Of a stretch of DNA of 11,265 bases, positions 343 through 7,848 are shown in pieces (position 1 is the stretch's first letter; every line of letters begins with the position of its first letter). The stretch is from the IMG/VR virus record IMGVR_UViG_2541047828_000001. The stretch is one strand, 5' to 3'. This DNA comes from a virus (taxonomy: Duplodnaviria; Heunggongvirae; Uroviricota; Caudoviricetes). The translations under genes and the position numbers were made by a program. The notes under the pieces were generated by a model that saw only the letters and a list, made by a program, of their open reading frames with translations, was not told where the DNA came from and made no database searches.

Positions 343-390
343 AACAATTCCTTAAATTTAAATATGGCAAGCTATATGTTTTGTTATATG

Positions 391-424
391 AATAAAAATC
401 CCCTCTCCGGTAAGAGAAGGGATT
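391..424 (-). terminator. Intrinsic terminator downstream of ydfJ
   Basis: Inverted repeat AATCCCCTCTCC / GAGAAGGGATT (about a 10-bp stem with one G-U pair) immediately 3' of the ydfJ stop (431-433). On the minus strand it is followed by TTTTTATT. Confidence 0.55.
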
Positions 425-430
425 GAGGGT

Positions 431-1714
431 TTACAGACTTCTGGAAGGTTGCGCAGCTCTTACAACACGCGGTTGATCTTCCGCAGCGTCTTCCAGCGCA
501 CTTAAATCACGGTCTTTCACCTCTGGCATTTTCAGCGCAGAGATTAAACCAATTACTGAATATGCCATGATCATAATGGCGATCGGATACCAGGATTCCG
601 TCATGGTGCAGAAAATACCCGCCAGGATAGGACCAAAACCGGAAGCGATAAGACCACCAATTTCTTTAGAAATAGCCATCCGGGTAAAGCGGTTTTTACA
701 GCCGAACATTTCTGCCATGGTAATGTTTTCCAGAGCAAATAATCCCAGCACCGCACAGTTATGAATCACAATCAGTGCAACCATAATGGTGCTCGGGGCA
801 TAGCTTTTATCTACAATGATAGAAAGCATTGGCCATGCCAGCACAATCGCGGAGGTATTCATAATAATATACGGGATCCGGCGACCAATTTTATCGGATA
901 ACCAACCAAGGAACGGAATGGTCATAAAGCCGAGAATCGAACTAATCATCAATGCATCTGTTGGAATTGCTTTGTTAAACAATAACGTCTGCACTAAATA
1001 GCCTGCAAGGAAAGTCTGAATTAACCCGGAGTTACCCGCCTGACCAAAACGCAGCCCTGTTGCCAGCCAGAAGGATTTGCTCTGGAACATGCTACCAGCA
1101 GGTGCAGGTTTTGCTGTGGGTTGGTTGCTGTCATTAACCTTCTCAAAGACCGGGCTTTCTTTCAGATTCATACGTAACCAGATAGCAAAGACCATCACGA
1201 CAACGCTCGCCAGGAACGGTATACGCCATCCCCACGCCAGCAGTTCCTCTTTACTGAGAATGAAGAACATAAAGGCCCAGATTGCCGTTGCGCTCAAGGT
1301 TCCGCAGTTAGTTCCCATAGCTACAAATGAGGAGATAATTCCGCGCTTACCTTTTGGTGCATATTCCGCCAGCATCGTACCGGCACCGGAAATTTCCGCA
1401 CCTGCACCCAACCCCTGAATAATACGCAGCGTCACCAGCAAGATGGGGGCAAAAACACCAATCTGTGCATAGGTCGGTAACACACCAATTAAGGTGGTAC
1501 AGATCCCCATCATGGTGATGGTAATAAAGAGCACTTTTTTACGCCCTATTCTGTCGCCCATTTTGCCGAAAATAAATGCTCCGACAATACGCGCCACATA
1601 ACCTGCACCGTAGGTTCCCATTGCCAAAATTAACGCCATTGCCGTTGATGATTCAGGAAAAAATATTTCATGAAACACCAACGCTGCGCCGAGCGAATAT
1701 AACTGGAAATCCAT
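431..1714 (-). CDS. ydfJ: MFS transporter (metabolite:H+ symporter-like), 427 codons, lacking the normal N-terminal ~30 residues
   Basis: A 427-aa ORF with multiple hydrophobic segments and MFS-like motifs (GxLxDRxGRKK, GxxAEYAPxxKRG). The product starts MDFQLYSLGAALVFHEIFFP, i.e. inside the conserved (E/D)W(Y/F)DF..LYG motif that normally lies ~25-40 residues into MHS-family transporters. An in-frame TGA lies two codons upstream and there is no Shine-Dalgarno sequence. Confidence 0.8.
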   Translation of the reverse strand: MDFQLYSLGAALVFHEIFFPESSTAMALILAMGTYGAGYVARIVGAFIFGKMGDRIGRKKVLFITITMMGICTTLIGVLPTYAQIGVFAPILLVTLRIIQGLGAGAEISGAGTMLAEYAPKGKRGIISSFVAMGTNCGTLSATAIWAFMFFILSKEELLAWGWRIPFLASVVVMVFAIWLRMNLKESPVFEKVNDSNQPTAKPAPAGSMFQSKSFWLATGLRFGQAGNSGLIQTFLAGYLVQTLLFNKAIPTDALMISSILGFMTIPFLGWLSDKIGRRIPYIIMNTSAIVLAWPMLSIIVDKSYAPSTIMVALIVIHNCAVLGLFALENITMAEMFGCKNRFTRMAISKEIGGLIASGFGPILAGIFCTMTESWYPIAIMIMAYSVIGLISALKMPEVKDRDLSALEDAAEDQPRVVRAAQPSRSL

Positions 1715-3049: not shown

Positions 3050-3640
3050 ATGTCTCGAATTTTTGCTTACTGTCGGATATCAACGCTGGATCAGACCACC
3101 GAAAATCAACGCCGGGAAATCGAAAGTGCAGGTTTTAAAATCAAACCTCAGCAAATAATCGAAGAACACATTAGCGGCTCAGCAGCAACCAGTGAGCGTC
3201 CTGGTTTTAACCGGTTGCTTGCTCGCCTGAAATGTGGTGATCAATTGATTGTGACAAAACTGGATCGCCTTGGTTGTAATGCAATGGATATCAGGAAAAC
3301 AGTGGAACAACTGACCGAAACAGGTATCAGAGTGCATTGCTTAGCATTGGGTGGCATTGACCTGACCAGTCCAACAGGAAAAATGATGATGCAAGTAATT
3401 TCAGCAGTCGCTGAATTTGAACGAGACCTTTTACTTGAACGCACTCATTCCGGGATAGTAAGAGCCCGCGGCGCAGGGAAACGTTTTGGTCGACCACCTG
3501 TGTTAAATGAAGAACAGAAACAGGTGGTATTCGAACGAATTAAGTCAGGTGTAAGTATAAGTGCCATTGCCCGGGAATTCAAAACCTCGCGGCAAACCAT
3601 TTTAAGAGCCAAAGCAAAACTTCAGACACCTGACATATAA
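3050..3640 (+). CDS. pinQ: Pin-type serine recombinase / DNA invertase (196 aa)
   Basis: N-terminal YCRISTLDQ catalytic-serine motif (Ser11) with resolvase/invertase-fold motifs, and a C-terminal helix-turn-helix ([18 protein letters not shown]). Length and sequence match the Pin invertases of Rac and Qin from memory. The Q suffix is inferred from the ydfJ/ydfK context. Confidence 0.9.
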
Positions 3641-3737
3641 AAAATAATCTCGGTGTGAGATGCTTTACGTCTTCCAAGCCCCCTTCCTTGCCGTAAATGG
3701 AAAGATACATCTAATTATAGAATTTATATGTTTTACC

Positions 3738-3911
3738 CTACGGCAGTGCTGGCCATTCAATATCCGGTACTACTGATGTATTAACACGGTTCAGCAACAC
3801 CCGATACTTTTTCCAGACTTCTAGCAACGAAGTTTCTTCCTCCGTTGCGATTTCCAGCTCAACAACAGTCTGAACGTACCAGGAACAGCCTCCTTCAGGG
3901 CTTGAAGGATA
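3738..3911 (-). pseudogene. tfa: 3' relic of tail fibre assembly gene tfa (last ~45 codons, no start codon)
   Basis: The minus-strand frame continuing straight after the stf stop translates as [57 protein letters not shown]. From LEIAT onward it is near-identical to the C-terminus of lambda Tfa as I recall it ([39 protein letters not shown]). There is no Met or GTG start in this frame. The stop is at 3738-3740. Confidence 0.7.
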
Positions 3912-6900
3912 TCAATGTTCGCTTCCTGTTAACTGCCCGACAAGTGCAACCAGTTCGCTTACCTGATTTTCCAGAGTGCTGATCCGGGTGCCTGCTGTTG
4001 CCAGATTTTGACGTAGCGTTGTGTTTTCCTCTTCCAGCGCGGTAACGCGATCATCTGTTTCACGGGCGACCTGAACAAGTAAGCCCGTCACGGCGGCGTA
4101 GTCAACATTCAGATAACGTGTTTCTTCACGTAATTCATTGCCGTCAACCGTTGGTCCCTGCAACTCTTCACCGTAATGAGTAAACGATCCCACAGCTTCT
4201 GGTATCGCCTCCATTACTTCCTGTGCAATAACGCCAGCATAAGGCATCCCGTTTTCCCTGAGCGTGTAGGTGTATCCGTTCATTTTACGGATTGCTTTCG
4301 TCGCGTCGCTGATAACGAGAATATCGTCTTTAAGGTCGCGGTCTGATGACTGATTCAGCGTTGTGCAATTAATAGCGCCATTTACATCAAACAACTGGCC
4401 TGCTGACGTTTTTTGCGCATAAAACAGATACGCAGCAGACGTTCCAACCTCAAAAAAGTTTTGTCGAGTACTGGAACCCCACACCCTGACAGAAAACGGT
4501 AGTTCTGCATTACCTGAGTTCTGTAAAACAAAACGATTGCCAGTCCCTGATTGTTTTGTAAGGGTTAAATCAACAGTTGAGTTAACCTCATTCCTGTTGA
4601 TAGTGAGCGCCTGCGCTGTAGCCCCGTTAACAGCACCTGTTTTGAGTTGAACCGCGCCGTCATTACCATTTAACAGTATCTCAGCTCCGCTAAAGAAATT
4701 TTTTAGCGACAGCATCTTACTTACGCCGACTGATGAACCCAACGCCCACGCGAGAGAATTACCGGTGCTATCAAACCCACGTACAAAGCAATCCATTTTG
4801 CTATAGTCTGACGTGCTTCCAAGGACATCAATCCGCCCTCCGCCAGATTTTAACGGGTTAGATGTGGTTAATGACCTGACAGCAAGATCGGTGGATGAAT
4901 TTAGATCGTCTACTGTTAGTAATTTCTTCCATTCCTGCGTCGTTCCGTTTTCAACTGTTCTTCCCCAAAAACCGGAATTGCGGCCTCCGAACTGCACAGC
5001 ATAATTTTTACTAAATTGAACATGAATGCCGCCAAGAACCATAGAACCTGCCGGGCCGTTTGTACTGCCTGCGATTGGTCTAAATTTGTCGACGTTATCA
5101 GTATGCTGAGAGTTCCAGTCATGACCTGTTAATGTTGCGATTCCTGAGTTAGCTGTAATTAACCCAGACGCTTTAAGATTTTGCACATCAATTCTGTCGT
5201 TTGCGAAATTATATGCAATTGCGTTACTAACGCTTCCGGCATCATCATAATCGCGTTTCTGAATAAACCAGTCGCCAGCATTAGCAATGAGAGTATAAGT
5301 AGGCGTGTTAGCCGGGCGATCTGTTTCATTAAATCTTATTGCTGGGTTAGCGCTCCTTATTTGTAAAGGTTTTTCAACCGTTGATTTCAGTATCGCACTA
5401 TCTACAATTAAATTACCTTCTGAGTTAAGGTTTAGATATTTTGAAGCACCAGTTGAACCATCGTATGTAAACCTTATTGTTAATTGACCTGGCTCATTTG
5501 ATAAAGTCTCAACATACATATCAGCACCAAGACGCACAGTGCTGTCAGTTGCTAACAGTCTTGTATGGAGAATACCACTAGATGTGTATGTATTGGTCGA
5601 ATCACTATATCTATCAAGAAATAGACTGTTAAGTTGAGGGCTATTACTCCTGCCTAATCCAAGATTCGTTCTGGCACCATCAATAGTTGCCGCACCAGTA
5701 CCACCATGAGAAACATCAAGCGGTATCCATTTTTTTTGTGTGTCGCTGTAACACCCCCATGTTGATCCGGTTAAACCCAGGCGCATGGATTTATCATGGT
5801 TATATAACCATGTTTCGCTACTCCATTGGTCAAGACGGTCCACTTCATTTTTGCGAGCGTGGCGTGTCCATTGCGGGCCTATTGTCGGATTCCAGCGATA
5901 AGTATAAAGCGAGCGCGTAGCCCATCCCTGAAATACACCTGTATACGCTGGTGTTCCATCTACCTGACTAATAAACCCCGTAAGACTGCTTTCACCGGAT
6001 GCAATCGATGGAAAGCCTTTTGCATTACTCATAATGCGCATAAATCCGATATACCCTGATGGGTTGCCGGAAATATCAGGACAATCACGCGGTGCTGAGC
6101 CAAGACCGATATTATCGCCAACAATTAATTGCGCCTGGTTGCGATAATTAAGTGCGTCCGCCGCAGATTTCGCCGCGTTTGTTTCACTGGATTTAGCATT
6201 AGTTTCGCTGGCTTTAGCGTTGGTTTCGCTGCTCTTTGCTGCTGCCTCGCTATTTTTCGCGTTGGTTTCTGATTTTTTGGCTGCTGTCGCGGAGTTTGCC
6301 GATGCAGTTTGTGAGTCTGCTGCCGCCTGTGCGCTGTTATCCGCATTCGTCTCAGACGTTTTTGCGGCCTTCGCGGAATTTCCTGCCGCCGTTGCCGAGG
6401 AAGCTGCACTACTGGCACTTGATGATGCGTTCGTTTCTGATGATTTCGCTGCCTCTTTTGAGGCCGCCGCATCCCGGGCTGAGGTGGCAGCTTCTGACGC
6501 TTTCGTGGTCGCGGTGGATGCAGAAGTAGCTGCAGATTTTTGTGACGCTGCAGCATTCGTTTCTGACGTTTTCGCCGCACCGGCACTGGTGGCTGCCGCG
6601 CTTTTTGAGGACTCTGCAGCGGCAGCACTTTTTAATGCTTCAGTGGCCTTTGTTGATGCCGTTCCTGCGCTGGAAGATGCTGACTGAGCAGATGATGCAG
6701 CCTGTCCGGCTGACGTGCTGGCGGCACGTGCTGAGCCTGCGGCATCGGTTGCATGGGTTGCCGCCTCACAGGCAGATGTGCCGGCATCGCTGGCTGACTT
6801 CTTTGCGGCAGCCGTGTTCTGTGCCACTGCGGACGCGTTATGCGCCACCTCTTCCACCATCAGTTCAAAGCGGCGCAGTGCCTCCGGACGGGCATCATCC

Positions 6901-7184
6901 TCCGTCATGGCACCAAGAAAATCATTCAGCGTACCCGGTTGTGAGTCTTCATACACGGTGATGGTCCCGGCATGCGATGGCGGGAAGCCTTCCACCAACA
7001 GAATAACGCTGTACTGACCGTACTCAACGTCCATGCTGTAACGCCCGGCTTCATCCGGATTTTCTGAGGCCACCGTGTTCACCACCACCGTGGTGCTGTT
7101 ACGTTTTGCTTTCAGCTGGATTGTGCAGTTCTGTACCGGTTTACCTGCACCGTCTTTCAGTACACCTGAAATCTTTACTGCCAT
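3912..7184 (-). CDS. stf: Side tail fibre protein (~1090 aa) with a C-terminal intramolecular chaperone domain
   Basis: The N-terminus MAVKISGVLKDGAGKPVQNCTIQLKAKRNSTTVVVN matches lambda Stf from memory. The likely start is the ATG at 7182-7184 with GGGGTG upstream; the ORF-track start is a GTG two codons earlier. The stop is at 3912-3914. It follows lom in the lambda order J-lom-stf. Confidence 0.9.
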   Translation of the reverse strand: MAVKISGVLKDGAGKPVQNCTIQLKAKRNSTTVVVNTVASENPDEAGRYSMDVEYGQYSVILLVEGFPPSHAGTITVYEDSQPGTLNDFLGAMTEDDARPEALRRFELMVEEVAHNASAVAQNTAAAKKSASDAGTSACEAATHATDAAGSARAASTSAGQAASSAQSASSSAGTASTKATEALKSAAAAESSKSAAATSAGAAKTSETNAAASQKSAATSASTATTKASEAATSARDAAASKEAAKSSETNASSSASSAASSATAAGNSAKAAKTSETNADNSAQAAADSQTASANSATAAKKSETNAKNSEAAAKSSETNAKASETNAKSSETNAAKSAADALNYRNQAQLIVGDNIGLGSAPRDCPDISGNPSGYIGFMRIMSNAKGFPSIASGESSLTGFISQVDGTPAYTGVFQGWATRSLYTYRWNPTIGPQWTRHARKNEVDRLDQWSSETWLYNHDKSMRLGLTGSTWGCYSDTQKKWIPLDVSHGGTGAATIDGARTNLGLGRSNSPQLNSLFLDRYSDSTNTYTSSGILHTRLLATDSTVRLGADMYVETLSNEPGQLTIRFTYDGSTGASKYLNLNSEGNLIVDSAILKSTVEKPLQIRSANPAIRFNETDRPANTPTYTLIANAGDWFIQKRDYDDAGSVSNAIAYNFANDRIDVQNLKASGLITANSGIATLTGHDWNSQHTDNVDKFRPIAGSTNGPAGSMVLGGIHVQFSKNYAVQFGGRNSGFWGRTVENGTTQEWKKLLTVDDLNSSTDLAVRSLTTSNPLKSGGGRIDVLGSTSDYSKMDCFVRGFDSTGNSLAWALGSSVGVSKMLSLKNFFSGAEILLNGNDGAVQLKTGAVNGATAQALTINRNEVNSTVDLTLTKQSGTGNRFVLQNSGNAELPFSVRVWGSSTRQNFFEVGTSAAYLFYAQKTSAGQLFDVNGAINCTTLNQSSDRDLKDDILVISDATKAIRKMNGYTYTLRENGMPYAGVIAQEVMEAIPEAVGSFTHYGEELQGPTVDGNELREETRYLNVDYAAVTGLLVQVARETDDRVTALEEENTTLRQNLATAGTRISTLENQVSELVALVGQLTGSEH
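3915..4346 (-). other. Peptidase S74 / C-terminal intramolecular chaperone domain of stf (last ~144 codons)
   Basis: The C-terminal segment SDRDLKDDILVISDATKAIRKMNGYTYTLRENGMPYAGVIAQEVMEAIPEAVG fits the S74 chaperone signature (S-D-x-R-x-K ... Y ... G-x-IAQEV...P). It is followed by a heptad-like tail (RVTALEEENTTLRQNLATAGTRISTLENQVSELVALVGQL). Confidence 0.75.
6156..6839. repeat. Intragenic imperfect tandem repeats encoding the Ala/Ser/Thr-rich (K)SSETNA repeat region of Stf
   Basis: Protein residues ~118-345 are low-complexity with recurring KSSETNA, KTSETNA and SAATSA units. In the DNA this appears as reiterated gtttc/tttcgctg/gcggc motifs. This is a known feature of lambda-type Stf. Confidence 0.6.
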
Positions 7185-7190
7185 ATTCAC

Positions 7191-7222
7191 CCCACAAAAA
7201 AGCCCGCCTGAACCGGCGGGCT
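7191..7222 (-). terminator. Intrinsic terminator between lom and stf
   Basis: Minus strand reads AGCCCGCC-GGTTCA-GGCGGGCT followed by TTTTTTGTGGGG. The perfect 8-bp GC-rich stem is at plus 7201-7222 and the T-run overlaps the stf ribosome-binding site. Confidence 0.6.
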
Positions 7223-7248
7223 GTCATAACACTGTGTTACCTGGCTAA

Positions 7249-7848
7249 TCAGAACTTATAACCGACACCCACGATGAAACCGTCAGTGCGCCAGTCGCCA
7301 CTGCCGGAGCCTTCATAAGCAATATCAATGGCCACGGATTCGGTCGGGTTAAACTGCACGCCAGTCCCCCACGCCAGAGACGTGTTGCTGCGGCGACCGT
7401 CATCACTTCCGGTCAGCACTTCGTGCGTTTTCCCCTTGTTGTCAGTTACGCGGAGATAATCCCCGGAGAAAGTAGAAATACGGCTGTAAGCCACACCCGC
7501 CATCGCATACGCGCTGAACCATTCATTCACGCGCACAGACGGCCCCGCCATCACGCTGAACCAGCGGTTACGCACGGAATCTTCATGCCAGCGGGTATCG
7601 CTGTAATGAGTCAGCTGGCGATTCTTGTCTTCTGCATAGCTGAATGACGTCACCATCCCCAGCGTGTCCGTAAACTCATAACGGTATTTCACGTTAATCC
7701 CGTTAAGATCATCGCTGCCGGGAACGTTCGTCGAGGCATGAAGATACCCCGCGCTCAGCGAGGACTGATGTTCAGACGCCCATGCAGGCGCACCGGATAC
7801 GACCAGACAGATGGCTGCGGACAAAATGGCTGCACAAACTTTACGCAT
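7249..7848 (-). CDS. lom: Lom outer-membrane protein (Ail/Lom/PagC family), 199 aa
   Basis: MRKVCAAILSAAICLVVSGAPAWASEHQSSLSAGYLHASTN... has a signal peptide with AWA|SE cleavage-like site, is near-identical to lambda Lom from memory, and ends in the beta-barrel terminal YKF. GAGAGG lies upstream of the ATG at 7846-7848. Confidence 0.9.
   Translation of the reverse strand: MRKVCAAILSAAICLVVSGAPAWASEHQSSLSAGYLHASTNVPGSDDLNGINVKYRYEFTDTLGMVTSFSYAEDKNRQLTHYSDTRWHEDSVRNRWFSVMAGPSVRVNEWFSAYAMAGVAYSRISTFSGDYLRVTDNKGKTHEVLTGSDDGRRSNTSLAWGTGVQFNPTESVAIDIAYEGSGSGDWRTDGFIVGVGYKF

Follow-up and report, generated by a model that had tools for sequence, protein, structure and literature searches.

Mosaicism of tail-fibre genes is a textbook phenomenon. 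In phage lambda the side fibre genes stf and tfa (orf-401/orf-314/orf-194) follow J and lom, and the distal part of the fibre needs a separate Tfa protein; lambda exchanges stf/tfa sequence with the Qin and Rac prophages by Red recombination (PMC3945230), and its Stf has been reported as an OmpC binder (bioRxiv 10.1101/2022.09.30.509847). The lateral fibres of T5-like phages (T5 pb1, DT57C LtfA) are self-chaperoned by a pfam13884 domain and bind the primary receptor, the O-antigen (PMC4728585, PMC8594841), and host range is switchable by recombination within ltfA (PMC4728585, PMC8594841, PMC11990801).

The stretch of viral DNA analysed here (the window; 11,265 nt, IMG/VR record IMGVR_UViG_2541047828_000001) contains stf from a lambdoid prophage that occupies the Qin/ydfJ locus of E. 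coli, in the gene order J-lom-stf that matches the position of stf in lambda. It is an ordinary lambda-like prophage gene, already known and annotated before; its RefSeq entry is WP_021543334.1, [quoted passage not shown]. Over window 3600-7400, the part queried for stf, E. coli MS 85-1 is 100% identical and four further genomes at least 99.6%; 87 of 5426 E. coli genomes carry at least 80% of this part.

A module-wise identity map was obtained from eight relatives by pairwise protein comparison and a MAFFT protein alignment (Table 1). Homology junctions were located near aa 284 (versus lambda), 361, 494-498, 685, 750-769, 938 and 1047. As judged from these comparisons, stf is a mosaic of at least seven swappable modules with at least six or seven junctions, and we consider it probable (about 0.78) that this lambdoid prophage side fibre (Qin/ydfJ) was built by repeated recombination among tail-fibre genes.

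Table 1. Coordinates of stf, its modules and the adjacent tfa remnant (positions are those of the window).
Feature	Residues	Position	Strand	Basis
stf, side tail fibre gene		3912..7184	(-)	1090 aa + stop; ATG at 7184
Module 1, N-terminal tail-attachment domain, lambda-type (PF08400)	1-134	6783..7184	(-)	Pfam match, lambda identity
Module 2, Ala/Ser/Thr-rich repeat shaft	135-345	6150..6782	(-)	composition, repeats
Module 3, conserved domain	346-498	5691..6149	(-)	common to mEp460, Nonagvirus fibre, T5-like fibre
Joint motif DVSHGGTGAATIDGARTNLGLG	490-511	5652..5717	(-)	homology breakpoint inside at aa 494-498
Module 4, rare AT-rich swappable cassette	499-685	5130..5690	(-)	GC3 0.26; unrelated in several relatives
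Module 5, divergent-allele segment	686-755	4920..5129	(-)	identity to relatives
Module 6, distal region before predicted cleavage site	756-946	4347..4919	(-)	alignment of homologues
Module 7, S74 intramolecular chaperone + C-terminal coiled coil (aa ~1047-1090)	947-1090	3915..4346	(-)	PF13884, S947-x4-K952 motif
tfa remnant, 41 C-terminal codons, lambda-type		3738..3863	(-)	annotated as partial; lambda Tfa identity

In pairwise comparisons of stf relatives, segments of ~100% identity adjoin unrelated segments, and some E. coli stf genes are ~100% identical up to aa ~361 (window ~6100) and only 40-77% identical thereafter. Across the 5426 E. coli genomes the frequencies of the modules differ ~40-fold: the N-terminal domain was found in 4732 and the repeat tract, counting any match, in 4638 (80% or more of its length in just 624), aa 346-678 in 242, the cassette (aa 499-685) in 113, and aa 679-1090 in 819. 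These frequencies and identity breaks bear out the multi-part chimera proposed in the first-pass annotation. Module 3 lies between two junctions, one at aa ~361 (IGLG) and the other within HGGTGA; module 5 shows ~57-67% identity to mEp460 and ~97% to W284, IAI1 and HUE1; and the final ~110 residues of module 6 are well conserved among the homologues, whose most variable part is aa ~499-770. For the cassette, PhiR70_1 alone among phages reaches 82% and all others 40% or less, and an unrelated cassette occupies this position in mEp460, PBS4, HUE1 and the phage lateral fibres. When modules 2-6 were scanned with Pfam and NCBIfam (E up to 1), nothing meaningful came up; modules 3-6 had no match to a curated family or solved structure in Pfam, NCBIfam and PDB sequence searches, and the NCBIfam scan of the whole protein gave no match, so that the "pyocin knob" name borne by truncated relatives in RefSeq was not reproduced.

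The lambda-like N-terminal domain and the Ala/Ser-rich repeats that had been described for the proximal part were both recovered. PF08400 matched module 1 with an E value of 1e-71 (239.6 bits, cut-off 26.6), this module is ~94% identical to a solved chain (9e7m, "Tail fiber protein"), and aa 1-284 share 86% identity with lambda orf-401. The tract of aa 135-345 consists of Ala (36%), Ser (22%) and Thr (12%) to a large extent and contains degenerate direct repeats at 84- or 126-nt spacing, in which Tandem Repeats Finder detected one short array only, the repeats being too degenerate for the program. The shaft is colinear with lambda Stf only as far as aa 284 (window ~6333), a point inside the repeat tract; no similarity to lambda Stf was found past it, and the SETNAK-type repeats beyond it resemble those of the T5-like fibre.

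The 5' third is indeed GC-richer, with a total GC of 0.55-0.57 versus 0.39-0.50 in the distal modules. Of the compositional seam that had been placed at 6100-6160, a homology junction at ~6100 (aa ~361) stands, but the best single GC change point was at window 6278 (aa 303, LLR 19). The GC content of the repeat tract was 0.566, as compared with 0.555 expected from its amino-acid composition (synonymous-codon shuffle), with a GC2 of 0.74 and a GC3 of only 0.44 (z +1.2). The step in total GC is mostly an effect of the amino acids of the Ala/Ser/Thr-rich tract, not of foreign origin; because amino-acid composition drives it, the step at 6100-6160 is no evidence of import, and its use on its own as a sign of foreign origin was rejected. 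At synonymous sites modules 1 and 4 alone stand out, and the breaks do not fall at 6100-6160: the N-terminal domain has a GC3 of 0.60 (z +4.9), comparable to J (0.67) and lom (0.62), the cassette one of 0.26 (z -4.7), and the change point in GC3 falls at aa 162 (window 6701). In addition, the distal modules have lower GC3 values than J and lom, the neighbouring lambdoid tail genes. The gene thus illustrates that an intragenic shift in total GC can arise as an amino-acid artefact, with the real breaks at synonymous sites located elsewhere.

The immediate relatives of stf, by sequence comparison, are other lambdoid prophages and phage mEp460. The stf of mEp460 (AFM76057.1) has the J-lom-stf order and the tfa remnant in common with the gene described here, as well as PF08400, the Ala/Ser repeats, module 3, the distal part and S74. 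Identity is 96% over aa 1-510 (lost after aa 498) and reaches 86% in aa 669-1090; mEp460 differs in that a longer unrelated cassette replaces aa 499-668 and the allele of aa 669-755 is diverged. With lambda are shared the N-terminal domain, the first Ala/Ser repeats and the place after J and lom; unlike the Tfa-requiring lambda fibre, stf ends here in S74 and tfa is cut to 41 codons. The fibres of T5-like phages and Nonagvirus have the Ala/Ser repeats, module 3, joint motif, distal region and S74 in common with stf at 58-74% identity, and differ in the N-terminal attachment, the middle cassette and the ~40 residues at the C-terminal end. For the fibre of Nonagvirus FritzHoffmann (Bas20), identity amounts to 74% in aa 318-508 and 71% in aa 669-1063; for that of T5-like slur09, which is without a PF08400-type domain, the figures are 58% (aa 204-512) and 66% (aa 674-1062), while BF23 ltfp and the Salmonella T5-like phages show 43-47% identity to stf. 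Since the Nonagvirus fibre is laid out in the same way overall, down to a PF08400-like N-terminal domain at only 35% identity, the architecture may be old and shared, and not the product of a foreign tip joined to a lambda shaft.

The imported tip on a lambda shaft, as envisaged in the first-pass annotation, holds in part. In its favour are the tfa remnant and the distal modules common to the lateral or L-shaped fibres of other siphophage lineages; with at least six or seven junctions, however, a two-part picture is too simple. PHROG 6578 matches all four of the segments used as queries.

The motif noted earlier in the distal region was confirmed at aa 490-511. Its region is present in 363 phage records, T5-like, phiEco32-like, T4-like and ~138-kb Klebsiella phages among them; in the slur09 fibre it is matched at three separate positions, and the PDB sequence search gave a 28-residue match of the motif to 7z47. 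The motif is a tail-fibre joint of several phage groups, with one of the junctions inside it.

The cassette of aa 499-685, with its GC3 of 0.26 and its occurrence in 113 of 5426 genomes, stands directly after the HGGTGA...NLGLG joint. It could conceivably represent a second domain for receptor binding, of recent import and lateral placement, that gives the fibre two specificities, although we regard this as quite improbable. Dual-domain "T-shaped" fibres have reportedly been described in BASEL phages, and a cassette of this kind would resemble them; host-range variation would then lie mid-fibre (aa ~499-770) and not at the conserved S74-adjacent tip.

The S74 module expected at the end of the protein was found as a PF13884 match on aa 947-998 (47.7 bits, gathering cut-off 22). 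S946, S947, D948, R949 and K952 are invariant across nine homologues, the conserved Ser...Lys cleavage motif is present as S947-D-R-D-L-K952, and the segment aligns to gp37 of phage S16 (PDB 6f45; SSDRRIKKDI in 6f45, SSDRDLKDDI in stf). On the basis of the literature (PMC4728585), S947 and K952 presumably form the catalytic dyad, and autocleavage after folding is predicted. The Pfam match above the gathering score and the S-D-x-x-x-K motif are shared with the endosialidase-type S74 chaperones (PF13884), from which module 7 differs in its additional C-terminal coiled coil and in capping a fibre in which no recognisable depolymerase (enzymatic) domain was found by Pfam and NCBIfam scans. An AlphaFold2 monomer of aa 669-1090 was unusable (pLDDT 37.8, pTM 0.20; alignment of 30 sequences, all from E. 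coli and at least 63% identical), its sole confident part being a helix at aa ~1048-1088. When the distal parts were searched against PDB sequences, the only hits were the S74 segment of 6f45 and the joint-motif match to 7z47, with no match to the T5 pb1 tip. S74 is a folding and cleavage module and no indicator of receptor class; the tip adhesin of S16 gp37, in which S74 is also present, binds a protein receptor.

The tfa remnant downstream of stf is 80% identical to lambda Tfa aa 151-191. It follows an S74-type stf in seven of the eight lambdoid loci scanned by pattern, including mEp460 and PhiR70_1, whereas the Nonagvirus and T5-like loci lack it. This remnant, together with the distal modules common to T5-like and Nonagvirus fibres, supports the replacement of a Tfa-dependent distal end by a self-chaperoned S74 tip; we infer the direction of transfer from the tfa scar only.

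In the proposed assembly, aa 1-134 would anchor the trimer to the lambda-type tail tip and be followed by the Ala/Ser/Thr-rich shaft, and the exchangeable distal modules (aa ~361-498, 499-685, 686-755, 756-946) would form the receptor-binding part. The S74 chaperone (aa 947-1090) would drive folding of the trimer and afterwards be released by self-cleavage at S947/K952. Such a self-chaperoned fibre should need no separate Tfa, so it would be Tfa-independent, with which the reduction of tfa to a 41-codon scar fits. Exchange would take place at short conserved joints, IGLG (aa ~361) and HGGTGA...NLGLG (aa 490-511).

An invertase gene, pinQ (3050-3640, plus strand), is found near the fibre gene, intact and 100% identical to annotated PinQ. 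A search with up to one mismatch for AAACCNNGGTTT, which we take to be the consensus of the Gin/Hin/Pin-type crossover core, found no site, and no suitable inverted repeats were found around the 3' end of stf. An invertase-switched fibre of the Mu Gin, P1 Cin or e14 Pin type is not supported, the invertase gene being present but inverted crossover sites not having been found.

Against construction by recombination it may be held that stf is a single vertically inherited gene without chimerism, the seam being a compositional artefact of the Ala/Ser/Thr-rich tract. The GC of the tract, almost as predicted from its amino acids, and its unremarkable GC3 agree with this, as do the span of PHROG 6578 from N-terminal domain to C-terminus and the 87 genomes that hold most of the region. 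It is nevertheless highly improbable in view of the ~40-fold spread of module frequencies, the ~100% identical segments beside unrelated ones and the two GC3 outliers; as an explanation of the whole gene it is refuted by the identity breaks and the rarity of the cassette, and it survives only for the step in total GC at 6100-6160. The S74-type distal part might instead be native to a lambdoid Stf subfamily and have been taken from prophages by the virulent T5-like phages and Nonagvirus, in the opposite direction to that of the first-pass annotation; this would suit the 819 genomes with aa 679-1090, the exclusively lambdoid closest relatives and an identity to virulent-phage fibres of only 58-74%. 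The truncated lambda-type tfa directly downstream, indicating that the locus once held a Tfa-dependent fibre, and the GC3 of the distal modules, lower than in J and lom, make this unlikely.

With regard to the receptor, a glycan is plausible by analogy with the T5-like fibres (PMC8594841, PMC11990801, PMC4728585), and the fibre would be a reversible primary-receptor binder, probably of O-antigen glycan. Binding to an outer-membrane protein instead, as in the report on lambda Stf and OmpC (bioRxiv 10.1101/2022.09.30.509847), is unlikely: the receptor is not set by S74, a folding module that also stands at the end of S16 gp37 (6f45), but the relatives of the distal modules are T5-like, Nonagvirus and related lateral fibres described or proposed as O-antigen binders (PMC8594841, PMC4728585), and Ur-lambda Stf appears to engage the O16 O-antigen (PMC11990801).

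Beyond correct annotation the locus is of little consequence, apart from being a clean example of lambdoid fibres rebuilt from modules shared with virulent siphophages, in which the tfa scar would record the direction of replacement. The module boundaries and the joints IGLG (aa ~361) and HGGTGA (aa 494-498) offer natural splice points for the engineering of chimeric lambda Stf, and the S74 end implies that such chimeras would do without Tfa.

The window corresponded to a lambdoid prophage's right end, the insertion being in ydfJ (the E. coli Qin site), with the gene order ydfJ′, ynfT, ydfK, pinQ, tfa remnant, stf (side tail fibre gene), lom and J. Positions 3600–7400, which contain all of stf, matched strain MS 85-1 at 100% identity and four further genomes at no less than 99.6%, and the stf product was already in RefSeq as WP_021543334.1. 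The N-terminus of ydfJ (431–1714, minus strand) was cut off at the prophage boundary, in agreement with the Qin attachment site arrangement of other strains (loci L001, L002 and L009).

The elements described for the fibre in the first-pass annotation, namely a lambda-like N-terminal domain, the Ala/Ser repeats, the motif HGGTGA...NLGLG (here the joint motif), the S74 end and a GC-richer 5′ third, were all present. The solved "Tail fiber protein" chain 9e7m was about 94% identical to residues 1–94, and the repeat tract consisted of degenerate repeats spaced by 84 or 126 nt. An S-D-x-x-x-K motif, from which the cleavage sites of T5-like fibres have been predicted (PMC4728585), was found from S947 to K952 and was invariant across nine homologues. 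No curated family matched modules 3–6 (module 4 being the cassette), and an attempted structure prediction gave no usable model.

Features of the stf locus. Genome counts are megablast matches in 5426 complete E. coli genomes (sensitivity about 85% identity or more)
Feature	Window	Strand	Residues	Details	Genomes with match	Genomes ≥80% covered
stf ORF	3912–7184	minus	1–1090	1090 aa counted from ATG		
N-terminal domain, lambda-type (PF08400)			1–134	Pfam, E 1e-71	4732	4679
Ala/Ser/Thr repeat tract			135–345	Ala 36%, Ser 22%, Thr 12%	4638	624
Segment 346–678			346–678		242	105
Joint motif	5652–5717		490–511			
Cassette	5130–5690	minus	499–685		113	112
Segment 679–1090			679–1090		819	410
Peptidase_S74			947–998	Pfam, 47.7 bits vs cut-off 22		
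tfa remnant	3738–3863	minus		41 C-terminal codons, ~50 nt downstream of stf		

The proposal that stf is a chimera was borne out, and more than two parts were found. As well as the unequal frequencies of its segments, positions 3600–7400 were covered to at least 80% in only 87 genomes. Match ends clustered at window 6100 (aa 362), 5692–5705 (aa 494–498) and 5130 (aa 685), with further clusters at 4880–4936 (aa 750–769), ~4670, 4372 (aa 938) and 4045 (aa 1047). When the protein was aligned with eight relatives and identity was taken per bin of 30 residues, aa 1–360 were 90–100% identical in all lambdoid comparators. HUE1 and W284 fell to 40–77% over aa 361–498; over aa ~499–690 mEp460, PBS4 and HUE1 were unrelated and W284 and IAI1 97–100% identical. 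Two alleles were seen at aa 691–750, W284 was divergent over aa 751–870, PhiR70_1 lacked aa ~690–930, and the S74 domain was again 90–100% identical across all the lambdoids aligned. The gene is thus a mosaic with at least six or seven junctions, and the seam placed at 6100–6160 coincides with one genuine junction among these, at aa ~361.

GC was 0.55–0.57 in the 5′ third vs 0.39–0.50 in the remainder, a real step, but when one change point was fitted to total GC by maximum likelihood it fell at 6278 (aa 303), outside the proposed interval. Because Ala, Ser and Thr codons carry C at position 2, the repeat tract reached a GC2 of 0.74; its GC3 of 0.44 was unremarkable (z +1.2), and its GC of 0.566 compared with 0.555 expected when synonymous codons were shuffled within the gene with the protein sequence held constant. 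GC3 was 0.60 (z +4.9) in the N-terminal domain, close to J (0.67) and lom (0.62), two tail genes lying upstream, 0.26 (z −4.7) in the cassette and average in every other module, with its change point at aa 162. Since the repeat tract is close to the shuffle expectation and synonymous sites break after the N-terminal domain and at the cassette, not at 6100–6160, the visible GC seam is mainly a boundary in protein composition. The cassette was also the most AT-rich synonymous-site stretch of stf (GC3 0.18–0.20 in 50-codon windows, aa 551–625), coinciding exactly with the rarest module (113/5426 genomes).

Relatives of the fibre were recovered among lambdoid, Nonagvirus and T5-like phages. With lambda orf-401, which forms the N-terminal portion of Stf in that phage, identity was 86% over aa 1–284; colinearity with lambda Stf stops at that point, within the repeat tract. 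The closest cultured phage, the lambdoid mEp460, was 96% identical over aa 1–510, breaking down past aa 498; a different cassette followed, and then 86% identity over aa 669–1090. In Nonagvirus FritzHoffmann the lateral tail fibre shared 74% over aa 318–508 and 71% over aa 669–1063, and its N-terminal domain was 35% identical. The L-shaped fibre of T5-like slur09 shared 58% over aa 204–512, a stretch that takes in the Ala/Ser repeats, and 66% over aa 674–1062. For the cassette a single good phage match was obtained (PhiR70_1, 82%), the others being at 35–40% in T5-like Salmonella phage fibres and several mEp phages.

The region around HGGTGA...AR.NLGLG matched 363 phage records, including T5-like and phiEco32-like phages, a T4-like phage and a ~138-kb Klebsiella phage. 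The slur09 fibre was matched at three separate positions, and a further match was to 7z47, a solved chain named "Putative tail fiber". The breakpoint at aa 494–498 lay exactly inside it, both in E. coli and in mEp460. The motif is no receptor-specific signature; it acts like a conserved joint that links modules and at which the part downstream can be exchanged by recombination.

The IAI1 allele (locus L010), ~96% identical overall, contained a 161-residue insertion after aa 448, within module 3; since the slur09 fibre repeats a W...PL..GGTGA unit, this may represent a duplication or an extra module. The final 134 nt of stf (3912–4045, minus strand), encoding a C-terminal coiled coil (aa ~1047–1090), occurred stand-alone at 97.8% identity in some genomes, in one case (NZ_CP134376.1) beneath an annotation as "GREB1-related protein". 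This coiled coil was also a part unlike the Nonagvirus and T5-like fibres.

The direction of replacement is supported by the tfa remnant, which was 80% identical to residues 151–191 of the 194-aa lambda Tfa. A degenerate pattern built from it and scanned over the comparison loci was found after an S74-type stf in 7 of 8 lambdoid loci, including phages mEp460 and PhiR70_1; in the eighth, IAI1, a remnant is annotated too. The scar thus occurs at different chromosomal sites as well as in phages; the Nonagvirus and T5-like loci scanned did not contain the pattern. The remnant is best read as the scar of a replaced stf-tfa pair: the distal end of a lambda-type stf, together with most of tfa, would have given way to a distal part with its own chaperone. 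The replacement is an old one and has become widespread among lambdoid prophages. The scar supports in substance the idea of an imported tip.

In the fibre so assembled, the N-terminal domain would anchor the trimer at the tail tip, the shaft would consist of the Ala/Ser/Thr tract, the Gly/Ser/Thr/Asn-rich distal modules would carry receptor binding, and the S74 domain would fold the trimer and then remove itself; we infer both autocleavage and independence of Tfa. The S16 gp37 fibre uses a protein receptor. It also ends in an S74 domain (6f45), and S74 serves folding and does not determine specificity. In a set of 30 homologues the ~110 residues immediately ahead of the predicted cleavage site were conserved and the variable parts were aa 669–770 and the preceding cassette, so specificity differences may be located mid-fibre. 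A surface glycan, serving as a reversible first receptor, is the probable target by analogy: lateral fibres of T5 and DT57C bind O-antigens, O-antigen binding has been proposed in BASEL studies for Nonagvirus and related siphophages, and Ur-lambda side tail fibres appear to engage the O16 O-antigen (PMC8594841, PMC11990801, PMC4728585).

RefSeq already holds exactly this protein and architecture, and mEp460 has a near-identical fibre. That unrelated phages exchange tail-fibre segments horizontally has been on record for decades; PMC3945230 cites it as the classic case and also shows recombination of lambda with the Qin and Rac stf/tfa genes by experiment. The engineering of chimeric lambda Stf proteins is routine (bioRxiv 10.1101/2022.09.30.509847). 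Three useful corrections emerge: the seam in total GC is an artefact of composition, the mosaic is made of many parts, and the direction of replacement can be read from the tfa scar.

The pinQ gene (3050–3640, plus strand) encoded an intact Pin/Gin-type serine invertase of 196 aa, 100% identical to the annotated HUE1 PinQ; in the record of MS 85-1, identical in other respects, the gene is annotated as frameshifted. Neither a crossover-site core nor flanking inverted repeats were found for it, so pinQ appears to be an orphan invertase, the remnant of a fibre segment that could be inverted. Several long spurious ORFs (97–167 aa) lay in other frames over the repeat tract (6125–7017, both strands), likely by-products of biased composition; in lambda, "orf206b" is annotated antisense to the equivalent region.
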